Virus record (IMG/VR): IMGVR_UViG_3300037762_000131
Location: 1-56,382 of that record
Strand: one strand, 5' to 3'
DNA length: 56,382 bases
Source: a virus
Taxonomy: Duplodnaviria > Caudoviricetes
A program made the position numbers and the translations under genes. The notes below the pieces were generated by a model. It saw only the letters and a list, made by a program, of their open reading frames with translations. It did no database searches and was not told the origin of the DNA. Shown one piece after another: positions 7,462-54,028 of this stretch. Numbering within the stretch: the first letter of the stretch is position 1; each line of letters opens with the position of its first letter.

Positions 7462-7467
7462 AGCCGA

Positions 7468-8478: not shown

Positions 8479-8536
8479 CTGTAGCCCCTCCTTTCTTTGG
8501 TGGTTGGCAACCCTTGTGGCCGCCACTGCCTGGCAC

Positions 8537-8600
8537 ACGGTAGCGGACGCAATGGATCTGCGCAACTCCCTTGCGCAACCGTGCGCCACGGATATACGCT
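8537..8600. promoter_or_regulatory. Divergent promoter pair with TGCGCAAC repeats (genetic switch)
   Basis: Rightward TTGCGC(8571)-N18-TACGCT(8595)-N6-ATG; leftward TTGCGC(8565)-N17-TACCGT(8542); TGCGCAAC at 8559 and 8572. Confidence 0.6.
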
Positions 8601-8606
8601 GGACCC

Positions 8607-8876
8607 ATGCCAGCCAGATACCGCATCCTCGAAGCCGCCACCCGCCAGTTCATACGAGAGCGCACCCGCGAACCTGACGGCACGAACAAAGGCGACGGGC
8701 TCGCCAAGTTCGCCGCGCTCATCGGCGTCTCCGTCGGGCAACTGTCCCGCATCCTCAACGGCCGCGTCGACCTCACCTGGGACATGCGCAGCCGCATCGC
8801 CGACGGCCTCGGCGTCCCACCAGCAGCCATCGGCGAAGAAATCCGCGACATCGACACACAGGCGGTGAACTCCTGA
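8607..8876 (+). CDS. Cro-like XRE HTH protein
   Basis: LAKFAALIGVSVGQLSRILNG..RIADGLGV; first gene of the rightward early operon. Confidence 0.82.
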   Translation: MPARYRILEAATRQFIRERTREPDGTNKGDGLAKFAALIGVSVGQLSRILNGRVDLTWDMRSRIADGLGVPPAAIGEEIRDIDTQAVNS

Positions 8877-9142
8877 TGCGCGTCCGTCACAAGCCGACGA
8901 CGGTCGACGCGGTCCGCTGGGACGGCTCAGCGACCGCCCTTCAAGAGCTGATCGCGCTCGGCCTGACCGCGTACCGGTACGAACCCACCGTCGGCGACTC
9001 GACCGTCACGTTGGTGATCTCCACCGGCGAGGGCGACCGGCCTGCGCTGCCCGGCGACTACGTCGTCAAGGGCACGGCCGGGGAGTTCTACCCGATCCGC
9101 CCGGACGTCTATGAGGCGTGCTACGAGGTGGTGAGTTCATGA
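8876..9142 (+). CDS. Small conserved phage protein (KPxxVxAVRW...PGDYVVKG..GEFYP family)
   Basis: Motif typical of a widespread phage family; function unknown. Confidence 0.8.
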   Translation: MRVRHKPTTVDAVRWDGSATALQELIALGLTAYRYEPTVGDSTVTLVISTGEGDRPALPGDYVVKGTAGEFYPIRPDVYEACYEVVSS

Positions 9143-9465
9143 GCGCAGTCCTGACGCTTGTTCACAAGCCGACCGTCGTCAAAGCCGTCCGCTGGGACGA
9201 CACCGCCGAGGCCCGCGCCGCGCTTGCGTCTATCGGGTTCCAGTTCGGCCTCCACGGCTACCTCGGTGACGGTCCCGGCCCGCGGACGCTGACCATCCGC
9301 ACCCCCGAAGGCGACCGGGCCGCCCGACCCGGCGAGTCGACCGTCATCCAAGGGACGCGGGGTCAGTGGTACTGCATCGGCCACGACGTCGAAGCCGACT
9401 GCTACGACCCCGTGCTGGTCGAGATCGGGCCGATCACGGTCACCGGCACCGGCGGTGCGTCGTGA
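9139..9465 (+). CDS. Paralogue of 8876-9142
   Basis: HKPTVVKAVRWD...EGDRAARPG..GQWY..CYD aligns with its neighbour. Confidence 0.75.
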   Translation: MSAVLTLVHKPTVVKAVRWDDTAEARAALASIGFQFGLHGYLGDGPGPRTLTIRTPEGDRAARPGESTVIQGTRGQWYCIGHDVEADCYDPVLVEIGPITVTGTGGAS

Positions 9466-9749
9466 GGCGCGCTGTCGCCAACGAGCTGGCGGTCGAGCGC
9501 CTCGTAGCCGCCATCGACCGGCTCACCGATCTGCTCACCGCCGAAGTCGAGCATCGCACCCCGATGCTTGACGCCGGGATGCTCACCGTCGCCGAAACCG
9601 CCGCCATTTTGCGGTGGTCGGAGGACACCGTGTACCGCCGCTGCCATATCGACCTGCCCTGCATCCGCCACGGCAACTCCTACCGCATCCCCCGCCACGC
9701 CCTCAACCAATGGCTCCTCGAACAAGCGCTTAAGGCCGGTGCCGCATGA
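9462..9749 (+). CDS. xis: Excisionase-like HTH protein
   Basis: MLTVAETAAILRWSEDTVYR..LPCIRHGNSYRIPRHALNQWL. Confidence 0.75.
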   Translation: MRRAVANELAVERLVAAIDRLTDLLTAEVEHRTPMLDAGMLTVAETAAILRWSEDTVYRRCHIDLPCIRHGNSYRIPRHALNQWLLEQALKAGAA

Positions 9750-10240
9750 ACCGGCCGTACGTCGTCAAGCTCGGCGACTGGTGGACCGCAGGCTGCCCTG
9801 ACTGCGGTTGGCGTAGCGACGGTTGGATCTGGTGTGAAGCCGTTCGCTCGGCACACCTTCATGCACGCCGCCTGCTCGGACCGTGGCATGCCTGACTTCA
9901 GGTGTGGCTGCCAGCTACCCCCGCGGCTGGGCGGCCACGGCCCGCCGGGCACGTCTGGCGCTCCGGATGCCTACGGACGACGCCGGTTTCGCTCGGCGGG
10001 CACTCTCTCTCACCTGTCCCATCCGAGACCAAGGCCTCACGCGACCTCCGTGGCGGTCGCCTGCAGCCGTCGGCCGCGAGTTGCAGGCCTCGGATGGGCG
10101 CAATCCACCCCCGCCCTCACCGGCTCACCCCCGGCGCCAGGGCGGGGCCAGACAACACAAGAGGGAGCGTCAGCCAACAGCGACGACGACTGACGCTCCC
10201 ACAAGCCCCGGAACCCGGAACCCGCAACGGAGGCTACACG

Positions 10241-10465
10241 ATGCTCAACACACGCCACCTCATGCACAAACGGCCCCTACCCGTCCGCAGCTACGGCCGG
10301 CAAGTCGCACGACGCCTGCGCAGCGACCCACTCGCGGACTTCCGCGACGAACCATGCAGACGGTGGCCGTGGTGGGCGACGTGGCTGCTCACCGTAACCG
10401 TCACCGTCGCAGCCGGCCTCGCGACCGGCGCCGCGCTCGCCCACACCCTCACCAACCACCCATGA
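10241..10465 (+). CDS. Small membrane protein
   Basis: GGAGG RBS; C-terminal hydrophobic helix. Confidence 0.55.
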   Translation: MLNTRHLMHKRPLPVRSYGRQVARRLRSDPLADFRDEPCRRWPWWATWLLTVTVTVAAGLATGAALAHTLTNHP

Positions 10466-10964: not shown

Positions 10965-11149
10965 GCTGGTGGCAGTGGGCGCTCGTCTGGCTCGCCGCAT
11001 CCGCCATCGTCGCACTCATAGTCGGCCGGGTGCTCGGGCGCCTGTCCGAGATGGATGAACGCCGTTGGCATGCGATTCAAGAGCGTGACAAGGCGCGTGA
11101 TGAGTGGTTGCGCCACATCCGCGAGAAGGCTGGCGACCGCGATGGGTGA
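10961..11149 (+). CDS. Small membrane-anchored protein
   Basis: N-terminal WWQWALVWLAASAIVALIVG helix. Confidence 0.55.
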   Translation: MSWWQWALVWLAASAIVALIVGRVLGRLSEMDERRWHAIQERDKARDEWLRHIREKAGDRDG

Positions 11150-11426
11150 CCTCAACTCTGAGCTCACCGAACTGTTGCGCGACATGCGCCACCAAGCCGG
11201 ACTCACCCAAAGCGAACTCAGCCAACGACTTGGGTGGGCGTCCCACTACAAGGGCGCGGGCTACGGCTGCCCGCAGGTCAGCAAGTACGAGCACGGCGTC
11301 AAGGTCCCCAAGTGGGACGTGCTCGGTCGGTGGGCGGCGGCGTGCGGGTTCCACGCCGAACTCGTCATCACGCGCCCCGGCGCCGGCCGCTGGGTCGTCC
11401 CCCTTAACGACGGACCGAACCCATGA
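11142..11426 (+). CDS. XRE-family HTH protein, paralogue 1
   Basis: LRDMRHQAGLTQSELSQRLG..VSKYEHG..P. Confidence 0.85.
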   Translation: MGDLNSELTELLRDMRHQAGLTQSELSQRLGWASHYKGAGYGCPQVSKYEHGVKVPKWDVLGRWAAACGFHAELVITRPGAGRWVVPLNDGPNP

Positions 11427-11569
11427 CCGCGAAACGCATGCGCCGCCGCGCCGCCCGCCGCGACGTCGCCGCACATGACTGCGACGAACACTGCGCCGTC
11501 GTCGGCCCCCCATACGCCCACTGGTGGCGTGTCTGCCTGTCCTGCGGCAGAACCTGGAAACGCACATGA
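11423..11569 (+). CDS. Small Cys/His-rich protein (48 aa)
   Basis: ATGA overlaps at both ends; HDCDEHC..CLSCG. Confidence 0.5.
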   Translation: MTAKRMRRRAARRDVAAHDCDEHCAVVGPPYAHWWRVCLSCGRTWKRT

Positions 11570-11838
11570 CCGACCTCGACGCGCAGCTCACCGAACTCCT
11601 CCGCGACATGCGCCACCAAGCCGGACTCACCGGGGCAGACCTCGCCAACCGAATCGGTTGGCACGGGAAGCAACGCCGCACCGTTGTCAGCAACTACGAA
11701 TGCGGCCGATACATCCCCGGACTCGAGCTGGTCGGCCGGTGGGCCGCCGCGTGCGGGCTCCACGCCGAACTCGTCATCACACCACGAGGAACCGGCAGCC
11801 CGTGGGTCGTGCCGCTCAACGACGGACCACAACCATGA
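11566..11838 (+). CDS. XRE-family HTH protein, paralogue 2
   Basis: LRDMRHQAGLTGADLANRIG..VSNYECG..P. Confidence 0.85.
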   Translation: MTDLDAQLTELLRDMRHQAGLTGADLANRIGWHGKQRRTVVSNYECGRYIPGLELVGRWAAACGLHAELVITPRGTGSPWVVPLNDGPQP

Positions 11839-12032
11839 CCGGCATCGGCGGCTACGGCGGCAACGAACTGCTCGCGATGCACTGCTGGCTGTGCCCCTAC
11901 CCCATCGCCGTCGGCAGCGTCTACCACGGACGCAACGGCGAACCCCCCGCCCACCTCGCCTGCTGGCAAAACCACAACACCACGACGCCGCTCAAACGAC
12001 CCGACCTCACCCGACAAGGACTCGACCGGTGA
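11835..12032 (+). CDS. Small zinc-binding protein (CxxC..HxxC)
   Basis: Coupled ORF; CWLC...HLAC. Confidence 0.55.
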   Translation: MTGIGGYGGNELLAMHCWLCPYPIAVGSVYHGRNGEPPAHLACWQNHNTTTPLKRPDLTRQGLDR

Positions 12033-12376
12033 CCGAACTGAAACGACCGCGGCGCCGCACCCGCATCAACAGGATCGCCTGGCTCGAACGGGAAAACGAA
12101 CGGCTCCGCGAAGAAAACGACCTACTCCGCGCCAGCCTCGACCACATCCCCCCACACACGACCGTGCCCGCCGCGCCGCCCACTCCCGGGCCGCTGCGAC
12201 CCGCCGCCGACGGCCTCGTCATGGGCGCCCTGAAAGTACCCGTCCAACGCCCCGACTGCGGCCAGTGTGACGGGAAGCTCGACCGCGTCGCCAGCGACGA
12301 CCGCAGCGGCCTGCGGTTCTACATCTGCGACACCTGCCACCACCCCACCCGACGCATCGGAGCCGCGCATGGCTGA
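12029..12376 (+). CDS. Coiled-coil plus zinc-ribbon protein
   Basis: LERENERLREENDLL; CGQC..CDTC. Confidence 0.6.
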   Translation: MTELKRPRRRTRINRIAWLERENERLREENDLLRASLDHIPPHTTVPAAPPTPGPLRPAADGLVMGALKVPVQRPDCGQCDGKLDRVASDDRSGLRFYICDTCHHPTRRIGAAHG

Positions 12377-34024: not shown

Positions 34025-34371
34025 AGCTCGCCGACCTGTACCGCGGCCGGTTGACGCACCGGCGGCTGCTTGTGCTGCTCAGCCATTTGCCGCCCGACTC
34101 TGCGGTGGGGCGGGCGCTCGGCGGCGACGCGGTGGGGTGGACGATCGAGCACGAGCTGCTCGCGACGCTGGTGGATGTCGCGAATGTGCATCGGTGGCAG
34201 CACGCCCGGGCGCATTTCAAGGGCGTCCCGGGCAAGCCGCCGGAGCGTGTCCCCAGGCCGCACCGGCCGGTTCATGCGCCGCGACGGCGGCATATGACGG
34301 TCGAGGAGATGTCCGCGATGTTCGGCCGCGAGTTGAAACCCGACTGGGAGGACGACGCTGATGGCGATTGA
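33665..34371 (+). CDS. Tail assembly chaperone, frameshifted long form (GT-like)
   Basis: Joined via the -1 slip at 33943-33949. Confidence 0.8.
33943..33949 (+). other. Programmed -1 frameshift site G GGA AAC
   Basis: X XXY YYZ in the correct phase. The -1 frame is open (GKLRALLAVVEEH..EADLARYY..HLPPDS) to the stop at 34371. Confidence 0.85.
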
Positions 34372-37300
34372 CGCCGGCGCCGTCGTTCTCCCGGTCGAGC
34401 CGGGTGCGTCTGATTTCGCGCGGAATCTGGCGCGGCAGATCGGCGGGCAGACCCGCGCCTTCACATCTCTGGGCCGGGAGTTGGGCGGCAAGGTCGCCGC
34501 CGGGATGTTCTCAAACGCCGACGCCGGCGGGTTCACCCGCAAGCTGCAGCAGGGCGTCGCGCGTGACACCGGCGGGTTCACGAAGACCGGGAAAGACATC
34601 GGTGAGAAGATCGGCGACGGCATCTCCGACGCCTTGGATGGCGTCTCCGCGCGGGTAGGGACGCGGATCGGGCCGGGGTTCGCGTCGATTGGGGGGAAGC
34701 TCGGCGGGAAAGTCATCGGAGGGTTCGCCGCCTTGGGCGTCGGCGCGGTCATCGCCGGCGAGATCGGCAAAGGCCTCGACACCGAAGAGGCGAACGACAA
34801 GCTCGCCGCGCAACTCGGGTTGACCGGCAAGGTCGCCGAGAAGGCCGGGCGGGCAGCTGGGAACCTCTACGCGGGTGCCTACGGCGACTCGATCGGGCAG
34901 GTCAACGACGCGCTCAAGGGCATCCAGGACAACATCGGCAACCTCGGGAAATTCACCCGGGGGCAGCTTGAAAGCATGGGCGCGAAGGCGTTGGACCTTG
35001 CGACGATCCTCGATGAGGACGTCGGTCGTACGACCCGCGCCGCCGGGCAGTTGATGCGCAACAACCTGGCGCCGAACGCGACAGCGGCGTTCGATCTGAT
35101 CACCCGCGCGCAGCAGCGGGGCGGTAATGCCGCCGGTGATCTGCTCGACACGATCGAGGAGTACGCGCCGTCGTTCAAGGAACTGGGCTTGACCGGTCCG
35201 CAGGCGCTCGGGGCGATCTCCGCGAGCCTGCGGGCGGGTGCCCGCAATGGCGACCTCGCCGCGGACGCGATCAAAGAGTTCTCGATCCGCGCGATCGACG
35301 GGTCGGAGTCCACGAAGGACGGGTTCAAGGCGCTTGAGTTGAACGCCAAGGACATGGCCGGCGCGATCGCCAGCGGAGGTCCGTCGGCGCGGAAGGCGTT
35401 CTCCACGGTCCTCACTGAGCTGGGGAAGATCAAGGACCCGGTGAAGCAGGAGGCTGCCGGCGTCGCGCTGTTCGGCACCCAGTTCGAGGACTTGGGGATC
35501 AAGGCGATTCTCGCGCTGAACCCGACCAAGAACGCGTTGGACGATGTTGGTGGCGCGTCGAAGCGGATGGGAAAGACGCTCGCGGACAACGCCAAAACGA
35601 ACATCGAGTCGTTCAAGCGGACGCTGTCGGGCGTGGCCACCGACGTGATCGGCAACCACGTCATCCCCGCGCTCAAGGATGCGGCGGCCGGGGCGCAGCG
35701 GCTGGGTGACCGGTTCGGCCCGTACATCAAAACCGCGATCGATGTCGGCCGGAAGGCGTTCGCGGCGATCGCGCCGATCATCCGGGACGTGGCTGACACC
35801 GTCAGCCGGTTCGTCGAGCGGGTGCAGGAGTGGTTCGGGTCCGGCGGCGGGGTGCAGCAGGCGCTGGGCAGCAACCGGCGGTTCTTCTCCGAGACGTTCA
35901 ACCAGATCCGCGGCATCGTGAAGTCCGCGCTCGACCTGATCCGCGTGATCATCAAGAACTTCACGGAGTCCGCGCGGGAGTTCTGGGACCGTTGGGGCGC
36001 GACCATCCTCAAGATCGCGGGCCATGTGTGGCAGGCGATCAAGGAGGTCATCCGCGGGGTCCTCAACGTCATCCAGGGGATCATCAAGACCGTCACCGCC
36101 GCGATCCGCGGCGACTGGCGCGGCGTGTGGGAAGGGATCAAGAAGATCCTCGACGGCGTGTGGGACGCGATGTTCGGGATCGTCCGCGGCGCCGTGAAAT
36201 CGATCGGGGATGTGCTGTCGAACTGGTGGCAGAACCAGCGGGAGAAGTGGCGGAACTTCTGGGATGGCGTCCGCACGACGGCCCGCAACGCGTGGGAGAG
36301 CCTCAAGGATGGCGCCCGCGGGGTGGTCGCCGCGCTCGGCAACGCGTTCAACAGCCTCAAGTCGAAGGTGGCGGCGCCGATCAACTGGATCATCTCGCGG
36401 GTGATCAACGGCGGGATCATCAAGGCGTGGAACAGCCTGATGCGCGCCCTGGGGTTCGGCAGTCTCACGGTCGGCGGCGTCAACCTCGTCAACAGCGGTT
36501 CCTCCACCGGCCGCACGAGCCCCGGAACGTTCGCCAAAGGCGGCCCCGTGCCGGCGTGGGCGGGCGACCATCAAGTGCCGATCCTCGCCGAGGCCGGCGA
36601 GTTCGTCATCCGCAAAGACATCGTCGACAAGATCGGCATGCGGACATTCGAGGCGTTGAACAAGTACGGGCTGGTCCCTCCGACGGGCGGTGACCCGCCG
36701 GGGGTCCGCCGGTACGCGGCGGGCGGGCTGGTCGCCGCGAAGCGGTTCGCGCAGGCGCAGTCGGGCAAGCCGTACATCTGGGGCGGCGTCGGCCCCGGCG
36801 GCTATGACTGTTCCGGGTTCATGTCCGCGATCCTCAACGTCCTCGAAGGCAAGGCCCCGTATTCGCGGCGGTTCACCACATCCTCGATCTCGTCGGGCAA
36901 CGGGATCGTCGCCGGGCTCGTGCCCGACCGCGGCGCGTTCAACATCGGGTCGTACGTCGGGAACCCGGGGCACATGGCCGGCACCTTGGACGGCGTCGAC
37001 GTCGAAGCGGGGGGCACGTCGGGCAACGTCGGGTACGGCGGCGACGCGTCGGGCGCGCGGCACCCGCGGTTCAACCGCAAGTGGCACGCCTCGGCCGCGT
37101 TCAGCCTGATCGACACGATCAAGGATCTGCTCGGCAAGGTCGTCGACCGGATCCTCGGCGGTGTCAGCAACCTGATCCGCAGTCACCTTGACCCCCCATT
37201 CGAGACGCTCGGCGTCGGGTTGGTCAACCGCGCGCGGGCCAGCGTGTTCGACCCGAAGGCGGTCGAGAAGCGCGCGGCGGCGGACGGGTTCATGGGCACC

Positions 37301-37540
37301 GTGCGGAGTCCGATGAGCCTCACGGTGGGCGAAGGCGGCCGGCCGGAGGACGTGATCGTGTGGCCCCACAAGTACGGTCGCCTCGAGCTGCGCGAACCGG
37401 GCGGCGTGTCGCTGGAAGGCGCCACGATCTACATCCAGTCTGATGACATGCCAGCCGGCATCAGGGGTGTGGTCCGGCAGGTCCAGTTCGACGACTCGCG
37501 TTGGACGCGGCATCACATCCGCGGGGGAGGGCGCCGCTGA
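34361..37540 (+). CDS. Tape measure protein with C-terminal NlpC/P60-like peptidase
   Basis: DLLDTIEEY..ADAIKEFSIRAIDGS TMP block, Trp-periodic repeats, KPYIWGGVGPGGYDCSGF..H. Confidence 0.93.
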   Translation: MAIDAGAVVLPVEPGASDFARNLARQIGGQTRAFTSLGRELGGKVAAGMFSNADAGGFTRKLQQGVARDTGGFTKTGKDIGEKIGDGISDALDGVSARVGTRIGPGFASIGGKLGGKVIGGFAALGVGAVIAGEIGKGLDTEEANDKLAAQLGLTGKVAEKAGRAAGNLYAGAYGDSIGQVNDALKGIQDNIGNLGKFTRGQLESMGAKALDLATILDEDVGRTTRAAGQLMRNNLAPNATAAFDLITRAQQRGGNAAGDLLDTIEEYAPSFKELGLTGPQALGAISASLRAGARNGDLAADAIKEFSIRAIDGSESTKDGFKALELNAKDMAGAIASGGPSARKAFSTVLTELGKIKDPVKQEAAGVALFGTQFEDLGIKAILALNPTKNALDDVGGASKRMGKTLADNAKTNIESFKRTLSGVATDVIGNHVIPALKDAAAGAQRLGDRFGPYIKTAIDVGRKAFAAIAPIIRDVADTVSRFVERVQEWFGSGGGVQQALGSNRRFFSETFNQIRGIVKSALDLIRVIIKNFTESAREFWDRWGATILKIAGHVWQAIKEVIRGVLNVIQGIIKTVTAAIRGDWRGVWEGIKKILDGVWDAMFGIVRGAVKSIGDVLSNWWQNQREKWRNFWDGVRTTARNAWESLKDGARGVVAALGNAFNSLKSKVAAPINWIISRVINGGIIKAWNSLMRALGFGSLTVGGVNLVNSGSSTGRTSPGTFAKGGPVPAWAGDHQVPILAEAGEFVIRKDIVDKIGMRTFEALNKYGLVPPTGGDPPGVRRYAAGGLVAAKRFAQAQSGKPYIWGGVGPGGYDCSGFMSAILNVLEGKAPYSRRFTTSSISSGNGIVAGLVPDRGAFNIGSYVGNPGHMAGTLDGVDVEAGGTSGNVGYGGDASGARHPRFNRKWHASAAFSLIDTIKDLLGKVVDRILGGVSNLIRSHLDPPFETLGVGLVNRARASVFDPKAVEKRAAADGFMGTVRSPMSLTVGEGGRPEDVIVWPHKYGRLELREPGGVSLEGATIYIQSDDMPAGIRGVVRQVQFDDSRWTRHHIRGGGRR

Positions 37541-37920
37541 TGCCGTCCGTGTCGTATGTGAAGGCGTTCCTGCACCGCGCGGAGGATCTCGAGGACTGGA
37601 TCGGCTGCTGGGTGAAAGACGGCCGCCCCCAGCTCGAAGTCGACGTGACCCGCGAGTTCGCCGCGTCCGGCCGGGCGATCCTCACCCGCTCCCGTCGGCG
37701 GACACGCGACATGGACCTCGTGCTCGTCGACTGCGACCGCATGGACCTCGACTGGCTCGAAGCCGCCGCCGGCGAGACGCTGCTGATCCGCGTGCCCCGC
37801 CGCTACTACGGCTACGGCACGTTCGCGGTCTTGGCGCCGACAGAGCTGCCGGGGATGGGCGCCACCGTCGACATCCCACTGGCGATCATGTTCGTCTCCG
37901 ACCCGACGACAGGATCATAG
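37540..37920 (+). CDS. Minor tail protein (distal-tail position)
   Basis: Coupled to TMP. Confidence 0.6.
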   Translation: MPSVSYVKAFLHRAEDLEDWIGCWVKDGRPQLEVDVTREFAASGRAILTRSRRRTRDMDLVLVDCDRMDLDWLEAAAGETLLIRVPRRYYGYGTFAVLAPTELPGMGATVDIPLAIMFVSDPTTGS

Positions 37921-37922
37921 GG

Positions 37923-38342
37923 ATGGTTTTGGAGCTTCCGACCGCGTCGCGGAACGCCGCGTGCGACGCCGTCGTCGACCGCTGCGAGGGCGGCACCCCA
38001 CCGGCGCTCATCCGCGTCTACACCGGCACCAAGCCGGGCGCGAACAACGCCGCGACGGGGACGCTGCTCGCGCAGTTCACGTGTTCGAACCCGGCGTTTA
38101 CGGCTGCCGTGACGGGCACCGCCACGTTGGACATCACCCCGGCGTTGACGGCGACCGGGCTCGCGAACGGCACCGCAGGGTGGTTTCGGATCGTCACCGG
38201 CGCCACGATCGCGACGGTGATCGATGGGACGGTGACGGTGACGGGCGGCGGCGGCGACCTGGAGCTGAACACCTTGTCGGTCACGACGTCGATCCCAGTC
38301 GAGATCACCGGTGGGACCGTGACCATGGGCGTCGGAGGGTAG
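37923..38342 (+). CDS. Small beta-rich virion protein, paralogue of 45230-45622
   Basis: RNA..LIRVYTGTKP..LLAQFTC..GTAGWFRI..DG..GDLELNT. Confidence 0.8.
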   Translation: MVLELPTASRNAACDAVVDRCEGGTPPALIRVYTGTKPGANNAATGTLLAQFTCSNPAFTAAVTGTATLDITPALTATGLANGTAGWFRIVTGATIATVIDGTVTVTGGGGDLELNTLSVTTSIPVEITGGTVTMGVGG

Positions 38343-44373: not shown

Positions 44374-44847
44374 TCACTCTTCGAAGGTGAGGTCGACCAG
44401 TTCCCACTGGTCGCCGCCCGCGTGCTGGATCTTGCATGTGAACTCGGTGCGGATCTGCGCGCCGAACCCGTTCTCCGAGTCGACGTGTGAGTCCATCCGA
44501 TAGCGGCCGTTGCCCTTGTGTTCGATTGTGTAATCGGTCGCGAGTGGGAACCCGGCGGTTGCCGGTGCCTTGAGGTTGTCTCTGACGAACTCTTCGCACA
44601 TGACGGCTGCGGTGAATTCGTCGTGCTCAGGCTCCGGTTCGGGTGCAGGCTCTTCGGCGACCGGCTCAGGCTCGGGTTCGGCTGCGGGCTCCGCCGGCTT
44701 GGGCGCCATGTCCGCCGCGGGGTCCGCGGACCCCGCGAAGACGACGACGATCGCGGCGAGAATCAGAACGAACGTCCACAGCGGGTGACGGACGAACCAG
44801 TTGCGCCGTTTCGGCGCTTGCTCGGGTTGGGTTTGTAGGGTGGTCAT
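44374..44847 (-). CDS. Membrane-anchored extracytoplasmic protein (moron)
   Basis: RRNWFVRH + TM helix, PE-rich linker, CEEFVRDNLKAPATA.F..VDSENGFGAQIRTEFTC domain. Confidence 0.82.
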   Translation of the reverse strand: MTTLQTQPEQAPKRRNWFVRHPLWTFVLILAAIVVVFAGSADPAADMAPKPAEPAAEPEPEPVAEEPAPEPEPEHDEFTAAVMCEEFVRDNLKAPATAGFPLATDYTIEHKGNGRYRMDSHVDSENGFGAQIRTEFTCKIQHAGGDQWELVDLTFEE

Positions 44848-45229: not shown

Positions 45230-45622
45230 ATGGCGCTCGGGTACGTCGCGACGTTGCGGAACAACCAGCTCGCTCAGATCACCACCTCCGTCGGCACAAG
45301 CGGGTTGATTCGAATCTTCTCAGGCACCCGTCCTGCGACCGGCGGGGCGGAGACGACGAAGCTCGCCGAGCTGACATGTTCGGCGACGTTCGCGCCTGCG
45401 CCTTCCGCAGGTGTGCTGACCGCGAACGCGATCACGCAGGACTCATCGGCGGATGCGACGGGGACGGCATCGTGGTTCCGGTTGTGTACGTCGGCTGGCG
45501 CGGCGGTGATGGATGGTGACGTCGGTCAGGGCACGGGTGATTTGCAGCTCAACAGCACGAGCATCACGTCCGGCGGCACGGTCGCGATCACGTCGTACGT
45601 GGTCACTGCGGGCAACCCGTAG
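45230..45622 (+). CDS. Small beta-rich virion protein, putative fibre subunit
   Basis: Paralogue of 37923-38342. Confidence 0.8.
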   Translation: MALGYVATLRNNQLAQITTSVGTSGLIRIFSGTRPATGGAETTKLAELTCSATFAPAPSAGVLTANAITQDSSADATGTASWFRLCTSAGAAVMDGDVGQGTGDLQLNSTSITSGGTVAITSYVVTAGNP

Positions 45623-45625
45623 CCG

Positions 45626-45829
45626 ATGTTGTCGCGTCGGGTGTTGCTGCGGCGGCTGGCGGCGGTCGCCGCGTGGCCGATCATCGCGAGTCACAAACCG
45701 AACCACGGCGGCCCGCCGATGGGGCACGCGCGGGTCACGTGGGCCGAGTTCCAGATCGCCGTCGGCGGCGGCTCCGGCGGGGCGTTCCAGCTCGGCGCGT
45801 TCCAGGCTGACGCGTTCCAGATCGGCTGA
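45626..45829 (+). CDS. Mini linker protein (ARVTWAEF + FQxxAFQ motifs); may start at the internal ATG 45719
   Basis: Both motifs recur in 48139-48534 and 49688-51574. Confidence 0.55.
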   Translation: MLSRRVLLRRLAAVAAWPIIASHKPNHGGPPMGHARVTWAEFQIAVGGGSGGAFQLGAFQADAFQIG

Positions 45830-45832
45830 CCC

Positions 45833-47005
45833 ATGGCGATCAGACACACGTTCGTCAGCGCGAAGGCCGACGGCGCCGACACCACGGTCGTGCAGCCGGG
45901 CGACTGGAACGCCGACCACGTCGTCGACGGCGACCCGGGCGTCCAGTACGTCAAAGCGTCGGGCGGCAACGACAGCAACAACGGGCGGTCGTGGGACACC
46001 GCGAAGGCGACGATCCAAGCGGCGGTCGACGCGTTGCCGAACAACTCACCGACCGGGATCTGGGGTGGGACGATCTATCTCGGGGCAGGCTGGTACAACT
46101 CCGAGCCGGTGGAGATCACCAAGCCTGGGGTGTTCATCGTCGGCGCGAGCGAGATGGCGACCAAGATCTCTGTCGCCGCTGGCCATGGGTACGCGTTCCA
46201 TTGGAACGGCAACTTCATCGGCGGCGGCGCCCGCAACATCCGGATCGTGTCCGGGTCGTCGACCACCAGCCACGGCGGCATCCTCGTCGACACCACCGAG
46301 AAACTCATCTTCGAGAATCTGGTGTTCCAGTCGTTCGGCGGCGGCGTCGCGCAGTCCACGTCGTTCGACGTCGACGCGGGCCCGTACGGGTCGAAGATCC
46401 GCGGCGACAACTCCGCAGCGTTCGCGGACTGGATCACGTTCCTGAACTGCGAATGGTTCGCCTGCTACCGCGGGTTCGTCAACGCCGGCGGCGGCGCCGG
46501 CGCGACCATCCTCGGCGGGTTCATGCGCGACATGCGCCACGAGGCCGTCTACTGCAAACGGCAGGTCCGCGCGGGCGGCGGCGGCGGCAGCGCTGCGGCG
46601 GCGGGCGCGGACATCATCGGCGTCTACATGAAAGCGACATTCGGGACCGTCGGGAACTACCTGATCCGCATCGAGAACGACCCGGCGATGGGGTCGAACA
46701 ACGACACCGACGCCGAGATTCTGGGTTGTAAGACTGAAGTGATCTCGAGCGACACCGGCCATCACATCCTGCTCGACGCAGGAGGCAACTACGTGATTGG
46801 CCACAAGTTCCTGAATGGCGCCGCCGAAGGTGGCGGCACCGCCGACGCGGTGTTCTTCGGCGCCAACTCCGACAACAACGTGATTGGCCCGCACCTTCTG
46901 TCGGGCAACCCGAAGCAGTTCCGGGCTGCGAACTCGACGATCGCAACCGCAAGCGGCAACGTCGTGTGGCAGCCGTCCGACTACACCCGCACGATCGTGG
47001 TCTGA
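45833..47005 (+). CDS. Beta-helix (pectin-lyase-like) receptor-binding protein
   Basis: YVKASGGNDSNNGRSWDTAKATIQAAVDAL..GTIYLGAGWY cap motif. Confidence 0.78.
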   Translation: MAIRHTFVSAKADGADTTVVQPGDWNADHVVDGDPGVQYVKASGGNDSNNGRSWDTAKATIQAAVDALPNNSPTGIWGGTIYLGAGWYNSEPVEITKPGVFIVGASEMATKISVAAGHGYAFHWNGNFIGGGARNIRIVSGSSTTSHGGILVDTTEKLIFENLVFQSFGGGVAQSTSFDVDAGPYGSKIRGDNSAAFADWITFLNCEWFACYRGFVNAGGGAGATILGGFMRDMRHEAVYCKRQVRAGGGGGSAAAAGADIIGVYMKATFGTVGNYLIRIENDPAMGSNNDTDAEILGCKTEVISSDTGHHILLDAGGNYVIGHKFLNGAAEGGGTADAVFFGANSDNNVIGPHLLSGNPKQFRAANSTIATASGNVVWQPSDYTRTIVV

Positions 47006-47006
47006 C

Positions 47007-48119
47007 ATGGCGACGTGGCTGGAATCGACGGGGCAGACGTACATCGCGCGGGCGCCTGACTCGGCGGCGTTGTCGATCGTCGGCGACATCGACCTGCGGA
47101 TGGTCGCGAAGGCCGTCGACTGGACACCGACGGTCGACGGCAGGTTCTTCGCGAAACGCACCAGCCTCGACGCGTCACAGCACGAGTGGCATTTCACGAA
47201 CCTGTCGGGCGCGACCCGGCGGTTGGACTTCGGGTGGCGGAACGCCGCCGCGACGCTGCTTTCTCATCAGATGACGGGTGTGCATTCCGGTGTCGACGGG
47301 GAGTGGCTATCGGTTCGCGTGACGCTCGACGTCGACGACGGCGCGGGCAACCGGGTGTGCACGTTCTACGAGAAGGCCGCGGCCGGCCCCGACGCCGATA
47401 TCGACACGAGCACCGGGTGGACGCAGCTGCAGCAGTTCACGGTGGCGGGGACCACCGACATCCGCGGGACGGTCGCGACGTTCGTGGAGATCGGGTCGGA
47501 GAACAACGGCGTCGGCGGCCGGTTCGTCGGCGGCGTAGGGCGCGGGCAGATCCGCGACGGGATCAACGGCACCGTCGTCGCGTCGCCGGACTTCACCGCA
47601 CTGACGGCCGGCGCCACGTCGTACACGGACACGCAGGGCAACGTGTGGACGTTCGGCACCAGCGGCATCACGATCGGCGAGGAGGCGCAGATCGCCCGGC
47701 CCGCCGTTGACGTGTCTGTCGGGTCGTGGTTGACGCACACGGGTGCGTCGACGAACCTGTTCGCCACGATCGACGAGGCATCCCCGGACGATTCGGATTA
47801 CATTCGGTCGCCGACCGACCCGGTCAACGCGCCGGTCGTTGTGAAGCTCGGGCCGTTGACCGACCCGGCGATCTCGACGGGGCATATCTTCCGTTACCGC
47901 TACGGGAAATCCGGGTCCGCGACGATCGACATCGTCGCGCAGCTGCGGCAGGGCTACACCAACGAGGGGTCGCCGGGGACGTTGATCGCGTCGGCGACGC
48001 ACACGAACGTATCGGCGACGCTGACCACCGCCGCGTTGACGTTGACCGGCGGCGAGGCGGACGCGATCACGAACTACGGGGATCTGTACCTGCGGTTCGT
48101 GGCGAACAAGACCGCCTGA
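47007..48119 (+). CDS. LamG-like domain plus C-terminal shared docking domain
   Basis: PDSAALSIVGDIDLR..; C-terminal RPxxDVSVGSW..IDE..DLYLRF domain. Confidence 0.75.
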   Translation: MATWLESTGQTYIARAPDSAALSIVGDIDLRMVAKAVDWTPTVDGRFFAKRTSLDASQHEWHFTNLSGATRRLDFGWRNAAATLLSHQMTGVHSGVDGEWLSVRVTLDVDDGAGNRVCTFYEKAAAGPDADIDTSTGWTQLQQFTVAGTTDIRGTVATFVEIGSENNGVGGRFVGGVGRGQIRDGINGTVVASPDFTALTAGATSYTDTQGNVWTFGTSGITIGEEAQIARPAVDVSVGSWLTHTGASTNLFATIDEASPDDSDYIRSPTDPVNAPVVVKLGPLTDPAISTGHIFRYRYGKSGSATIDIVAQLRQGYTNEGSPGTLIASATHTNVSATLTTAALTLTGGEADAITNYGDLYLRFVANKTA

Positions 48120-48138
48120 CCCGATCGGAGGTGCTGCG

Positions 48139-48534
48139 GTGCTGCCGATCGCTGCGCGACGCATCGACTACGTCGACGGTACGTCCGACGAGACGTCGGG
48201 TGTGCCCGCCCGCAAGACGGGCGTCCGCGGGGTCATCTACTGGCACAACGAGCCGTACCGCACGTTCGACTACGGCAACGACACCTACGTCCTCGACGCC
48301 GGCGGCGAGATCGCGGGCGAGACCGAGTCCGACGAGACCCACGAGACGTGGCGGCAAGGTATCCACGGGGAGGCGCACAAGAACAAGCCGCCCTACGCGC
48401 GGGTCGCGTGGGCGCAGATGCAGGTGACGGCGCCGACGGCGGTGCAGGCGATCGTCACGTGGGCGCAGCTGGAGATCAATCAGGGCTCGGGGCATGCGCG
48501 GGTGACGTGGGCGGCGTTTGAGCCGGGTCCATGA
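48139..48534 (+). CDS. Linker protein with three (A)RVxWAx motifs
   Basis: YARVAWAQMQ, AIVTWAQLE, HARVTWAAFE. Confidence 0.7.
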   Translation: MLPIAARRIDYVDGTSDETSGVPARKTGVRGVIYWHNEPYRTFDYGNDTYVLDAGGEIAGETESDETHETWRQGIHGEAHKNKPPYARVAWAQMQVTAPTAVQAIVTWAQLEINQGSGHARVTWAAFEPGP

Positions 48535-49688
48535 CCACCACCTACGTCCTCGGGCCGACCAACTCGGACATCACCGGCCAGACCGGCGACTTCTCCAAGC
48601 AGCTGGACGACACGGCGGTGGGCGCGTCGACGTTGACGTGGACGAAACCAGGAAACGGCACTGAGCAGATCTGGGGGGTCTCGCAGGCCGGTGTGCCTGG
48701 TGCGCAAGGTGTCACCGGCGACTACAACCCCATCGAGTTCAACATCATCACCGGCATCGACGCTTCGTCGACGGTGCGGGTCGCGCTCCGGCGGATCAAC
48801 GCGGCTGGAGCCGCGCAGGCGACGTCGCCGTTCACCGCGACGCAGCTCGCCACCGCCGGGCTGAAGACGTTCACACACCCGACCGTCACGCTGGGCACGT
48901 GGGCGGCGGGCGACCGGCTGGTCGTGATCTACGAGTGGGCTGGCGGCAGCACGATGTCCAGTCCGGTGTCCATCCAGTTCGAGGTCGGGTCGACGTCGGC
49001 GGAGGTTGTCGCGCCGTGGACGATCATCCCGCCGGTCTCCGGCACCCTGGGCGTGACGCAGGCCGGCGACACGCTCGCGGCGGCTGGCGCGCTCGGGTAC
49101 AGCGGGTCGCTCGCCGCTGCACAGGCTGGGGACACGTTGGCGGCGTCGGGGACGAGCGCCGCTGGAGGCGTCTCCGGCACACTCTCAGTAACCCAGGCGT
49201 CGCAGACGTTGGTGGCGGCGGGGACGAGCGGGGAACCGCAGCTCATCCGACCTACGTCCGACCGGCTGGTGGGGGCGTGGACGACCGACACCGGCGCCGC
49301 CAGCAACCTGTTCTCGGCGGTCGATGAGGCGGTCGCGTCGTTCGCTGACCACATCCGCTCCGAAAACAACCCGACCGCGTCGCCGGTGGCGGTCCGACTC
49401 GCCGCCTTGACCGAACCCGCCGGCGCCGTGTCTGACGGCGACGTCCAAGTCCGCGTCCAATACGACAAAGAAGGCGCCGCCACCGCGACCCTGATCATGC
49501 AGCTCCGGCAGGGCTACGTGTCCGAAGGATCCCCGGGAACGCTCATCGCGTCGGTTACTGACAGCAACGTGACCGACGCCGCTGAGGACGGCGTGATCTC
49601 GCTGACCGCCGTCGAGCACGACGCGATCGTCTACACCGGCGGCGTCGCCTCTGATCTCGACGTCCGCCTCGTCGCAGGCGTGACCTGA
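48531..49688 (+). CDS. Virion fibre branch protein: beta domain, 3 TQA repeats, shared docking domain
   Basis: GTLxVTQAxxTLAAxG x3; RPTSD..VGAW..VDEA..DLDVRL. Confidence 0.75.
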   Translation: MTTTYVLGPTNSDITGQTGDFSKQLDDTAVGASTLTWTKPGNGTEQIWGVSQAGVPGAQGVTGDYNPIEFNIITGIDASSTVRVALRRINAAGAAQATSPFTATQLATAGLKTFTHPTVTLGTWAAGDRLVVIYEWAGGSTMSSPVSIQFEVGSTSAEVVAPWTIIPPVSGTLGVTQAGDTLAAAGALGYSGSLAAAQAGDTLAASGTSAAGGVSGTLSVTQASQTLVAAGTSGEPQLIRPTSDRLVGAWTTDTGAASNLFSAVDEAVASFADHIRSENNPTASPVAVRLAALTEPAGAVSDGDVQVRVQYDKEGAATATLIMQLRQGYVSEGSPGTLIASVTDSNVTDAAEDGVISLTAVEHDAIVYTGGVASDLDVRLVAGVT

Positions 49689-51574
49689 TGACCCAGTTCG
49701 CGCGCCCCGACTCCGACGTCACCGTCGGCTCATGGACGACCGCGCCGCTGTTCCAAGCGATCGACGAGGCGGTCGCGTCCGACGCCGACTTCATCTCGTC
49801 GAACAACAACATCAACGAGACCGTCGAGGTCGGCCTCTCCGACGTCGGCGACCCCGCCGTCTCCACCAACCATGTCGTCCGCTACCGCTACCGCAAGTCG
49901 GCGTCGGCGGGGAACTCCCGCACCATCCAAGTGCAGTTGGTGCAGGGCGCCACGATCGTCGCCACCGGCACACTGCATACGCCGACGGACGCGACGTGGC
50001 TGGCGGGAACCTTCACCCTCACCGGTCCTGAGGCCGACGCGGTCACCGACTACGCCGACCTGCGGCTGCGGTTCATCGCGGGCGGCACCACCGGCGGGTC
50101 CGGCGGCAACCGCCGCAGCGTCGAGATCTCGTGGGCCGAACTCGAAACCCCCAACGCGGTCACGACCGGGACGCTCGCGGTCACCCAAGCGGACCAGACG
50201 CTGGCGGCATCCGGGACGGCTCCGACCGTCGGCGAAGCCAGGGTCACGTGGGCTGAGCTCGAGACGCCCGCCGCCACGGGGATCAGCGGCACGCTCGCGG
50301 TCACCCAAGCGGACGACACGCTCGCGGCTGGTGGGACGGTCACAGAGCCGCCGGTCTCCGGCGCCCTCGCCGTCACCCAGGCCGACCAGACAATCGCCGC
50401 TGCGGGGCAGTTGGGCGCGTCTGGGACCCTCTCAGCCACCCAAGCCGGCCAGACGCTCGCGGCGTCCGGGACGATTAGCGGCCCGGCGGTCACCTATGTG
50501 CGGGTGTCGCAGATCTACCTGCAGGCCCCCGCAGGCGCCGAAACCGGCGGCGTCACTGGCACCCTCGCAGTAACTCAGGCGAACCAGACGCTCGCCGCGA
50601 CGGGCGTCCAGCAGTACACCGGCACGTTGGCGGTCGCGCAGGACGACCAGACTCTGGCGGCGGCCGGCGCGACCATCACCGGCATCCTCGGCGGCCCCAC
50701 ATTCCAAGCCGACGCGTTCCAAACCGACGCGTTCCAAGGCCCCCTCGTCAACCAAGCCGACCAGACCCTCGCCGCGTCGGGGACCGTCACAAGCCTCGGC
50801 TTCTCCGGCTCACTCGCCGAAACGCAGGACAACCAGACGCTCGCCGCGTCCGGGCAGCTGCGCTACACCGGAACTCTCGCCGTCGCACAGGTCGGTCAGA
50901 CGCTGGCGGCGGCAGGCACATCCACGCCGCCAGGTGTGTCGGGCTCACTCGCGCAAACCCAAGCCGGCCAGACGTTGGCCGCGTCCGGCACGGTCACGTC
51001 GCTTGGGATCGCCGGGAACCTCGCGGTCACCCAAGCCGGCCAGACCTTGGCGGCAGCCGGTGTGCTCCGCTACACCGGCACCCTCGCACAAATCCAGCAA
51101 GCGCAGACGCTGGCGGCGGCCGGGTGGATCCGCGTCACCGGCACCCTCGCCGTGACGCAGGCCGCACAAACGCTCGCGGCCTCCGGCGGGACAGCGCAGC
51201 ACATCGGCACCCTCGCTGCCACCCAAGCCGCACAGACCATCGCGGCGAGCGGCGTGCTCCGCTACACCGCCACGCTCGCTATCACCCAGGCGAACCAGAC
51301 GCTCACCGCCGCCGGCACCCTCCGTTACACCGGCACCGCCGCAGCAACCCAGGCGCCACAGACACTCGCCGCCGCCGGGATCGTCACCATCATCGGCATC
51401 GCCGGCAACCTGTCTGTCACCCAGCAGAATCAGACGCTCAACGCAGTCGGCGAACTGCCCGTCGCCACCGCCGCGCGGACCTACCGCATCCCCGGGCCGA
51501 ACGCATACCGGCCGTCTGGGCCGCAGCACATCTACCGGCCGGCCCGCCACGACCGCGTAACATCCCCACCATGA
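49688..51574 (+). CDS. Fibre scaffold protein: shared domain plus ~17 GTLAVTQAxQTLAAxG repeats
   Basis: Repeats counted in the translation. Confidence 0.82.
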   Translation: MTQFARPDSDVTVGSWTTAPLFQAIDEAVASDADFISSNNNINETVEVGLSDVGDPAVSTNHVVRYRYRKSASAGNSRTIQVQLVQGATIVATGTLHTPTDATWLAGTFTLTGPEADAVTDYADLRLRFIAGGTTGGSGGNRRSVEISWAELETPNAVTTGTLAVTQADQTLAASGTAPTVGEARVTWAELETPAATGISGTLAVTQADDTLAAGGTVTEPPVSGALAVTQADQTIAAAGQLGASGTLSATQAGQTLAASGTISGPAVTYVRVSQIYLQAPAGAETGGVTGTLAVTQANQTLAATGVQQYTGTLAVAQDDQTLAAAGATITGILGGPTFQADAFQTDAFQGPLVNQADQTLAASGTVTSLGFSGSLAETQDNQTLAASGQLRYTGTLAVAQVGQTLAAAGTSTPPGVSGSLAQTQAGQTLAASGTVTSLGIAGNLAVTQAGQTLAAAGVLRYTGTLAQIQQAQTLAAAGWIRVTGTLAVTQAAQTLAASGGTAQHIGTLAATQAAQTIAASGVLRYTATLAITQANQTLTAAGTLRYTGTAAATQAPQTLAAAGIVTIIGIAGNLSVTQQNQTLNAVGELPVATAARTYRIPGPNAYRPSGPQHIYRPARHDRVTSPP

Positions 51575-52809: not shown

Positions 52810-53096
52810 TGAACGCTGACCCGGACCGCGACGTCGAAGAGATCCCCATCGACGTCCCCGACGAACACGACCCACCCGGCGAAGGCGAACTCGACCCCGA
52901 CGACGACTACGTCGAAGGCACCACCCGCGAATGGATCGAATCCCTCCCCGACGAAGAACGCCCACCCGCGTTCCAGGACCCAGACTCGGCGCCCGCCGCG
53001 ACCTGTCCGAAGTGCGGCAAGCCGCTGCATGTCCGCCGCGAGGGTGCGAACGTAACTGTCCAAGCCTGCCCACGGATCCACCCGGGTGACCACTGA
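52809..53096 (+). CDS. Acidic protein with zinc ribbon
   Basis: TAATG/TGATG-coupled between holin and endolysin; CPKCG. Confidence 0.6.
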   Translation: MNADPDRDVEEIPIDVPDEHDPPGEGELDPDDDYVEGTTREWIESLPDEERPPAFQDPDSAPAATCPKCGKPLHVRREGANVTVQACPRIHPGDH

Positions 53097-54028
53097 TGGC
53101 GCTGCGACTCCAGCGCCGCTCCGCGTTCGGCTGGCCAGCGTCCGCCGCCGGAACCGCGAACCCCACACTCGGGATGGCCGTCCACTACGAAGGCTCCGAC
53201 ACCGGCATCGCCAACTTCTCGCACGCCGAATGCATTGACCACTGGCAGGACACGCGGCGGTTCCACATGAACACCCGCGGCTGGTTCGACATCGGCTATT
53301 CGTTCGGCGTTTGCCCCCACTACGTCCTCGAAGGCCGCGGCAAAGACAAGGCACAGGCCGCCCAGCCCGGCGGTAACACGACCTGGTACTCGTGCACGTT
53401 CATGACCGGCCCAGGAGAGCAGCCGCACCCCGGGCAGGTCGAGAACTTCCGGGCGTTACGCGCGTGGCTGATGGCCGACGACGTCGCCGCGGCGATCCGG
53501 CCGCACAGCTCGTTCGTCGCGACCGGCTGCCCCGGCGACGTGCTGCGGGCCATGATCAGCGACGGCACCATCATCCGCACGCCGACCCCAACCCCCAAGC
53601 CTGAGCCGCAGGAGGACCCGGACATGCTCGAGATCAGCACCGCCGACCGTGGCGACGGGCAGGGCGTCGCCGTCCGCGAAGCCTTGAACGACTGGCTGCG
53701 CGCGTGGAACCGCGTCAAGGACGCGCTCGCCGAACCCGCCAGCACATGGGAGTTGTTGCCGTTGCCCGACACCGTCGACAGCACAGTGGTCGCCCGCGTC
53801 GAGTACGTGTGCCGCAACGCCCGCGCCAAGTCGATACCGGACGGCGGTCTGAAGGGCGTGTCGTTCGCGCACCTCGATCTGGTCGCGATGGACTACGCGC
53901 GGATGGTCGAGCTGGCCAACCGCATCCACGATGGCAGCCACCACGAGATGATGGCGATGATGCAAGCGCAGGTCGACCGGTTGCTCGCCGCCGAACCGGA
54001 GCCGACCGAACCCACGCCGACATCATGA
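53096..54028 (+). CDS. Endolysin, N-acetylmuramoyl-L-alanine amidase (Amidase_2/PGRP-like)
   Basis: AVHY, HMNTRGWFDIGYSF, EGRG, PH..TGCPG. Confidence 0.88.
   Translation: MALRLQRRSAFGWPASAAGTANPTLGMAVHYEGSDTGIANFSHAECIDHWQDTRRFHMNTRGWFDIGYSFGVCPHYVLEGRGKDKAQAAQPGGNTTWYSCTFMTGPGEQPHPGQVENFRALRAWLMADDVAAAIRPHSSFVATGCPGDVLRAMISDGTIIRTPTPTPKPEPQEDPDMLEISTADRGDGQGVAVREALNDWLRAWNRVKDALAEPASTWELLPLPDTVDSTVVARVEYVCRNARAKSIPDGGLKGVSFAHLDLVAMDYARMVELANRIHDGSHHEMMAMMQAQVDRLLAAEPEPTEPTPTS

Follow-up and report, generated by a model that had tools for sequence, protein, structure and literature searches.

A recurring domain and a free strand motif in a siphophage tail-fibre module: a candidate plug-and-socket joint

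INTRODUCTION

The window studied here is the whole of IMG/VR virus record IMGVR_UViG_3300037762_000131 (Duplodnaviria; Caudoviricetes), a complete virus of 56,382 bp with direct terminal repeats and a G+C content of 63-70%. In its late operon, between the tape-measure gene and the endolysin gene, lies a module in which two elements recur. The first is a domain of ~140 residues, which we call D. The second is a strand motif of 12-13 residues, which we call s. Because of the tape-measure gene and the late-operon neighbours, we take the phage to be a siphophage and this region to be its tail-fibre module. This report concerns the relation between the domain and the strand.

Does the strand belong to the fold of the domain and, if it does, can one protein lend it to another? 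An original prediction, made from the letters of the window, held that D is one strand short in two proteins and is completed there by strands borrowed from other proteins. Here we describe how D and s are distributed in the window and in relatives, how the two pack together in structure models, and how other explanations of the same data compare. The architectures and the models point to a joint between domain and strand, in cis in one protein and perhaps in trans in others.

RESULTS

Domain and strand at the locus

D is common to three proteins, all encoded on the plus strand. gpD (47007-48119, 370 residues) consists of a LamG-like head (residues 1-228) and a D (residues 229-370, 47691-48116) that ends the protein and is predicted to act as a socket. 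gpF (48531-49688, 385 residues) has a beta-sandwich head (about residues 1-170) and likewise a C-terminal D (residues 238-385, 49242-49685). In gpG (49688-51574, 628 residues), the apparent scaffold of the module, D comes first (residues 1-136, 49688-50095). The other two copies are 49% and 52% identical to that of gpD, and the three-copy alignment has 42 invariant columns, so the domain that the original prediction saw in three proteins is real. It was also right that gpD and gpF stop just short of the strand: both end 2-3 residues past the last domain strand, with LRFVANKTA and VRLVAGVT as their final letters. gpG runs on past D through a Gly-rich linker, GGTTGGSGGN, into the strand RSVEISWAELETP.

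The strand follows the motif xRVxWAELExP, and its seven copies in the window all lie inside the module. The pattern [VIL][STA]W[AVLI][EQA][LFMI], searched in six frames through the whole genome, matches six times; every match is in a coding frame between 45.7 and 50.3 kb, one in gpB, three in gpE and two in gpG. We scored the copies with a 13-residue matrix made from 33 strict instances, using a cut-off of 3.4 (1 in 100,000 shuffled positions). The gpG strand behind the linker (50114-50152, plus strand) scores 39.8. A second, free and near-consensus copy in gpG, GEARVTWAELETP (50231-50269, plus strand), scores 32.1, and a third, TYVRVSQIYLQAP (50492-50530, plus strand), is degenerate and falls under the cut-off at 3.0. 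gpB (45626-45829, plus strand) carries one free copy, GHARVTWAEFQIA (45722-45760, plus strand), with a score of 17.1. In gpE (48139-48534, plus strand, 131 residues) an orphan N-terminal part is followed by three tandem strands (48391-48429, 48442-48480 and 48490-48528, all plus strand) spaced 16-17 residues apart; one relative of gpE was found, at 81% identity. The free copies predicted for gpB, gpE and gpG were all recovered by pattern and matrix, the degenerate one with the low score just given.

The heads of gpD and gpF differ. In an Atlas structure search the gpD head matched, with template modelling (TM) scores of 0.64-0.77, clusters in which 100% of the members carry PF13385. By this comparison of models the head is LamG-like, as had been proposed. 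In Pfam it gave no match to Laminin_G_3 (PF13385) at E-values up to 0.1; phrog_5313 matches gpD residues 14-219. The gpF head is an unnamed viral beta-sandwich.

A large family with a CBM-like fold

A profile of the three D copies matches 4,507 proteins at an E-value of at most 0.001 among 1.84 billion representative proteins, 2,570 of them at 1e-10 or better and 130 at 1e-30 or better. These 4,507 relatives are representatives of clusters at 50% identity. None of eight module proteins matched Pfam at E-values up to 0.1, and in PHROGs the module proteins matched unnamed families or 'virion structural protein' only. Searched against PDB sequences, one D profile (A3) gave no match at E-values up to 10 and another (A1) gave azurin only, with an E-value of 0.14. 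In the literature searched we found no description of the D domain or of the strand motif.

The best Foldseek matches of the gpG D model in the PDB are carbohydrate-binding modules (CBMs) of the families CBM16, CBM35, CBM4 and CBM36, with E-values from 2.5e-5 to 7.6e-4 and TM scores of 0.4-0.55. The modelled fold of D is a CBM-like jelly roll. Its identity to the CBM matches listed is 7-17%, and no CBM family is among the Pfam matches for D; the likeness is at the level of the fold only. These CBMs share the beta-jelly roll with D but are themselves complete single-chain folds. Among predicted viral structures the best matches are uncharacterised phage proteins (TM scores 0.64-0.74).

Where do the relatives come from? 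Megablast of the module against GenBank phages gave no match, nor did tblastn of gpG 1-165 against 50,697 GenBank phage records. A strand array also found nothing among GenBank phages by tblastn, a search in which the BLAST low-complexity filter may hide repeats. A protein with three D domains, of the nozzle type described below, matched the 50,697 phages via its C-terminal nozzle part only. A single locus emerged from 185,579 bacterial and archaeal species genomes; because one peptide pattern only was scanned, this says little about range. The D family seems confined to uncultured viral contigs.

Which D domains are followed by a strand

We examined the architecture of the best 150 of the 4,507 relatives together with the window proteins, locating D by hmmsearch and strands by the matrix. 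The 204 D instances divide into 90 that stand at the end of their protein, 53 that have a strand within the next 35 residues, 37 that pass straight into another D, and 24 that fit none of these classes, several of them having weak strands or insertions. The Gly-rich linker before the strand is itself conserved in relatives. Among the best matches, 149 proteins from outside the window have a D: 61 have a head and a terminal D, like gpD and gpF, 21 are stand-alone D proteins of ~146 residues, 6 have several D domains and end in D, and 61 have D elsewhere. As far as sequence can tell, the rule is plain: strands follow D domains that lie before the C-terminus and are missing from those that are terminal or stand alone. 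Six proteins hold both kinds, the first D having a strand and the terminal D lacking one (DsD in five, DssD in one); in other multi-D proteins the order is DsDsDs (two) or DsDs (one).

A further 25 proteins of ~1,000 residues have three D domains, three being detected in 24 and two in P0133. By eye, 22 of the 25 have three strand units behind the third D (P0091, P0133 and P0143 are ambiguous), with a period of 15 residues wherever the matrix scored adjacent units. A relaxed matrix reads the 25 as DDDsss (11), DDDss (10), and DDDssss, DDsDsss, DDDs and DDss (one each). By Foldseek these are podophage nozzle proteins: they match the tail chain of Pa223 (E-value 5.6e-22), that of VP1 (4.6e-16) and that of GP4 (1.5e-9), and also SU10 and P22 tail chains. 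In this type the nozzle itself incorporates both domains and strands, or beads and rope. P0007, P0012 and about 23 more belong to it, as does a frame at 7140-10358 of viral locus L003. An AlphaFold2 model of P0012 from 25 aligned sequences has a mean predicted local distance difference test (pLDDT) value of 87.5 and a predicted TM score (pTM) of 0.57; its strands at 490-501, 506-515 and from 520 stand at pLDDT 93-94. We considered whether the three strands behind the D domains of the nozzle proteins make up a beta-meander. The contacts of the docking model described next speak against this, for there a single D contacts the strand from either side.

Models of the strand in cis and in trans

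We infer from structure models how the strand packs. For the cis arrangement, gpG 1-171 was modelled with AlphaFold2 from 28 aligned sequences. The model has a mean pLDDT of 95.3 and a pTM of 0.87, and even the Gly-rich linker reaches about 94-97. Residues 145-154 (VEISWAELET) are modelled as a beta-strand with pLDDT above 90. Because the strand is modelled this confidently, it probably belongs to the D fold in cis, and the D of gpG would be completed by the strand at 50114-50152.

For the trans arrangement, three copies of gpD 229-370, supplied with an alignment, were modelled with gpE 84-131 in three runs and three controls. The interaction prediction score from aligned errors (ipSAE) was 0.74, 0.75 and 0.73 in the runs and 0.01, 0.06 and 0.00 in the controls. 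In calibration, 58 of 80 solved complexes and 2 of 110 mismatched pairs attained the ipSAE mark, figures that hold only roughly for a three-copy job with a custom alignment. The partner has a pLDDT of at least 63, and the contacts of different runs agree to at least 69%. The D copies have a pLDDT of 87 with gpE, against 66 and 68 with unrelated partners. Modelling of a truncated domain with the strands was expected to show docking, and it does.

In the best run two D copies are occupied, one by gpE strand 2 (residues 104-112) and one by strand 3 (120-125), and the third D copy has no confident contact. The idea of gpE as a three-way splitter is supported for these two strands, which dock confidently, and not for strand 1, which stays undocked. 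The docked strand pairs with D residues 63-77, the RYRY strand, and also contacts residues 1-4, 27-34 and 36-44, as well as alternate residues of 49-53, 79-85, 107-113 and 129-140. The predicted contacts at residues 1-4, 27-29, 31-34, 36-44, 63-77 and 132-140 coincide with the conserved motifs of the family: RP, IDE, DxDYIxS, RYRYxK and LRFxA. Within one D the strand is flanked by residues 63-77 on one side and 36-44 on the other.

The models support, in silico, completion of D in trans. We take completion in trans to be supported because the cis and trans models, the split between architectures, the match of three strands to three D domains in the nozzle proteins and the gene neighbourhoods described below all fit one strand per domain. 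On this central claim of the original prediction the gpD domain does take up gpE strands in a controlled model; the binding itself is a prediction.

Neighbourhoods of D genes and strand arrays

An 11-sequence D alignment searched against viral contigs gave 192 confirmed stretches, of which 80 loci were used. With two further loci and the window, these made up a neighbourhood scan of 82 loci in six frames (1.03 million residues). D ends its frame in 79 of 88 instances, and in viral loci 46 of 85 D instances are stand-alone. Nearly all strand matches (517 of 533) are on the D-bearing DNA strand. The prediction that truncated domains and free strands would occur together in relatives agrees with what we see: stand-alone D genes adjoin arrays of 6-29 tandem strands, with up to 29 in one frame, and the arrays usually begin 0.5-2 kb downstream of the D gene.

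Might the strand complete D in cis only, the free strands binding each other or a different partner, for instance a baseplate protein, while gpD and gpF attach by another route? The cis packing is the best-supported model, in gpG and in P0012; gpE strand 1 is undocked; and the numbers of strands and sockets in the window do not agree. Such a reading has to contend with stand-alone D proteins (21 of 149 proteins and the 46 locus instances), which have no cis strand and are encoded beside arrays, and with a trans model that passes its controls. It is also hard to square with locus L002, in which a stand-alone D gene stands directly before a gene for a protein that has a strand at its start and is beta-helix-like from there on. 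We rate cis-only completion as distinctly unlikely. Beside the stand-alone D of L002, frames at 7288-7989 and 11071-12222 have HLAVTVT(L/M)(F/Y)PPS-like repeats that the matrix does not score.

The arrays also change the picture of the strand. In relatives it is a tandem-repeat unit with a consensus near APRRAQVSWAELEVPT, and 362 of 434 neighbour spacings are exactly 16 residues. The free copies of the original prediction are real; what relatives add is the 16-residue unit. Since the repeat flanks a beta-helix and follows domains other than D, it could form a fibre shaft by itself. Under that explanation s is a shaft repeat, the building unit of an oligomeric beta-shaft, whose first copy leans on the preceding domain, and a C-terminal or stand-alone D is a complete, lectin-like module that binds host sugars instead of strands. 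The strict period fits it well, as do arrays of up to 29 copies that flank a beta-helix domain (L016) or follow other N-terminal beta domains (L052, L016), about 20 units of a second 16-residue repeat in gpG, and the resemblance of D to carbohydrate-binding modules. It leaves unexplained why a D that ends a protein never has a strand and a non-terminal D almost always has one, why three strands follow three D domains in the nozzle proteins (the 22 of 25 counted by eye), why the conserved motifs are the predicted strand contacts, and why the trans score is 0.74 when the best control reaches 0.06. We regard a shaft repeat beside a complete D as improbable, if the least improbable of the alternatives.

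The position of the genes raises another possibility. Phage fibre genes often have assembly chaperone genes after them, and stand-alone D genes adjoin array genes; D could be a chaperone-like assembly factor that holds the strand repeats and is absent from the finished virion. Several facts tell against this. Putative receptor-binding heads are joined to D in 61 of the 149 relatives and in gpD and gpF, D is built into nozzle proteins, which are virion parts, and its gene is usually upstream of the array gene rather than downstream. We give such a role for D hardly any weight.

We return to one strand per D, completed in cis or in trans, and to a search run in the opposite direction. A DNA pattern for WAELEVP selected 105 loci with 98 in-frame matches; D shares the frame in 31 of these, occupies a different one in 32 and was not detected in 35. 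Arrays of at least three copies occur 33 times in these loci, 21 of them with a D gene present. Among the 12 arrays without D, 10 have their first strand no more than 1.5 kb from the upstream end of the available sequence, and another shows what remains of a D where its contig begins. The last, L119, carries 27 strands without a D on a contig estimated to be 59% complete; because its array frame runs off the contig end, it is not usable as a counter-example. In three loci with a single WAELEVP match and no D (L153, L156 and L171) the motif's upstream half is missing, and we took these as chance matches. Locus counts are not independent events, because the loci share ancestry and some are pieces of one contig.

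If strand and domain touch, they might change together. For every stand-alone D we took the consensus of the adjoining array as its partner. Three distinct loci (L041, L058 and L070) have strands that read S-A-F/V instead of S-W-A. The arrays of L041, L058 and L070/L071 have VSAFELE or VSAVELE, with no Trp. The D domains of the three loci differ at contact positions: Arg to Val or Thr at 3, Asp-Glu to Ala/Val-Pro at 28-29, Tyr to Cys or Ser at 49, and Thr to Phe at 51. From the sequences, these paired changes hint at a knob-and-hole exchange. They may be one event, because the three loci may form one clade.

Other genes of the module

The tape-measure gene (34361-37540, 1,059 residues) lies upstream, with more tail proteins after it, and the endolysin gene (53096-54028) lies downstream. 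gpA (45230-45622, 130 residues) matches phrog_3758, a 'virion structural protein'. It recurs as residues 162-297, the C-terminal part, of the protein at 37443-38342 directly after the tape-measure gene; this unit of 130 residues may be a further small module that the tail employs twice. A minus-strand gene (44374-44847, 157 residues) breaks into the tail operon. Its product has a hydrophobic N-terminal segment and then a Pro/Glu/Ala-rich stretch, and belongs to phrog_13160, of unknown function. gpC (45833-47005, plus strand, 390 residues) has no D domain, no strand by the matrix and no family match.

gpB has 67 residues, or 36 if the inner ATG at 45719 is the start; neither candidate start shows a clear ribosome-binding site. 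After its strand come GGGSGG and three AFQxx units (45761-45826). This pentapeptide triplet recurs as FQADAFQTDAFQ in the middle of gpG (about 50690-50740) and could be a second docking motif.

The second 16-residue repeat of gpG has the form GTLAVTQAxQTLAAxG. Three GTLxVTQAxxTLxAAG units are found in gpF at 49020-49240, with a period equal to that of the strand repeat in relatives. It may serve as another type of rope site, or as a repeat of the shaft. gpG residues 441-587 match phrog_38872.

DISCUSSION

We propose that D is a CBM-like jelly roll whose fold would include one more beta-strand, s. The strand would adjoin the conserved RYRY strand and be covered by the IDE / DxDYIxS segment. gpG would complete its own D in cis by way of the Gly-rich linker and have one good and one degenerate strand to spare. 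gpD, with its LamG-like head, and gpF, with its beta-sandwich head, would be sockets completed in trans. The donors would be gpE with three strands, gpB with one, and gpG with its good and its degenerate copy. The product would be a branched, multivalent adhesin in the siphophage tail-fibre module. In relatives, stand-alone D 'beads' would sit on 'rope' proteins made of 6-29 tandem 16-residue strand units. On the models and the architectures together, we think it reasonably probable that D is completed in this way, by strands in cis in gpG and in trans in gpD and gpF.

A number of points weigh against this proposal. D and the arrays are absent from the 50,697 GenBank phage records by tblastn, and there is no cultured example. 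In the window, six or seven strands face sockets in two genes. Some arrays stand beside a beta-helix domain (L016) or behind N-terminal beta domains other than D (L052, L016). The co-occurrence of D with arrays and the single covarying clade are not independent, given shared ancestry. gpE strand 1 has no confident contact in the trans model. The repeats, the D family, its architectures and its gene neighbourhoods are observations; the structural evidence consists of models throughout, and the words 'groove' and 'insertion' rest on contact lists. The trans model may merely replay a cis fold that the program has learnt, and with three copies and a custom alignment the job is set up differently from the ipSAE calibration. 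Finally, the solved beads discussed below bind as dimers (PMC13730344), and the model here has one D per strand.

What would the joint mean? If it is real, it gives a function to a large unannotated family (the 4,507 clusters at 50% identity, none of them in Pfam). More tentatively, and with rather less confidence than we place in the mechanism itself, we suggest that D and the 12-13-residue strand form a plug-and-socket code that can be read from sequence in thousands of uncultured sipho- and podophages, with one strand per bead. If so, the length of a tandem array would set the number of lectin-like beads per fibre, and a bead fused to a head would make a branched adhesin out of a chain. Counting sockets and strands in the genome could then reveal a fibre's valency and wiring.

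The original prediction drew its parallel from donor-strand complementation in chaperone-usher pili, in which a domain short of one strand is completed by a strand of another polypeptide. Related strand-exchange filaments work in this way too. The pilins there have an Ig-like fold, depend on a periplasmic chaperone and an usher, and receive the strand from the next identical subunit. D as modelled resembles them in lacking one strand that another polypeptide would supply. It is unlike them in its CBM-like jelly roll, in a donor that is a multi-site rope or adaptor, and in a cis strand that follows the domain C-terminally. Among the Pfam and PHROGs matches of the module and tail proteins scanned there is no chaperone or usher family. 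The pili are an analogy only.

Branched adhesins held together by short peptides are a functional parallel. One such system is found in Klebsiella phages, with a branching domain that we take to be T4 gp10-like. As described in PMC13352976 and PMC11414711, Klebsiella podophages have dual receptor-binding proteins with a branching domain and a conserved docking peptide, and Ackermannviridae have branched tailspikes. There, as proposed here, a short peptide docks on a dedicated domain and the adhesins are branched and exchangeable; the domains and the peptide are different, and tandem arrays are not known to be involved.

The closest known system is the chain-like 'rope-and-bead' fibre, which is in print for the podophages GP4, VP1 and A1002 (PMC13730344); the original prediction, which knew of nothing of this kind in phage fibres, fails on that point. 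In A1002, eleven dimers of a 147-residue and a 171-residue protein (gp40/gp41) sit on the fibre-dock part of gp39, which is a nozzle-rope protein, and each forms an augmented beta-sheet with the rope (PMC13730344). The paper describes similar fibres for GP4, with the 140-residue gp80 and a separate rope protein, and for VP1, with the 160-residue gp11 (PMC13730344). The likeness extends to several features. Beads of 140-171 residues on tandem rope sites there have their counterpart in stand-alone D proteins of ~146 residues and arrays of 6-29 units of 16 residues here. The rope of the solved fibres can be part of the nozzle or attached to it, and the relatives with three D domains and three strands are nozzle proteins. 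Separate small beads are present in relatives; in the window D is fused to heads, so that only a modified form is found there. Tandem docking sites are found in the window in gpE (three) and gpG (two or three), with one site in gpB. Augmentation of a beta-sheet between bead and rope is predicted for D, from the cis model (pLDDT 95) and the trans model (0.74 against 0.06).

There are differences as well. No GP4, VP1 or A1002 chain is among the Foldseek matches listed for the D model, which extend down to an E-value of 7.6e-4. The window phage is a siphophage, its beads carry LamG-like and other heads and would form branches instead of a plain chain, and its rope motif is a recognizable sequence repeat. 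Because no sequence similarity was found in the PDB and GenBank phage searches, no fold match is listed, and the solved beads bind as dimers, we do not file D in the GP4/VP1/A1002 bead family; a distant fold relation to GP4 gp80, VP1 gp11 and A1002 gp40 is possible. If the joint is real, the rope-and-bead principle reaches from three podophages to siphophages and to beads that carry heads. On the more tentative reading of a plug-and-socket code, D would add to that principle another bead family, independent of the known one and much more widespread, and the first case of beads carrying cargo domains. What is new here, beside those fibres, is a very large bead family, so far undescribed, whose rope motif is readable and which is found in a siphophage, fused to adhesin heads.

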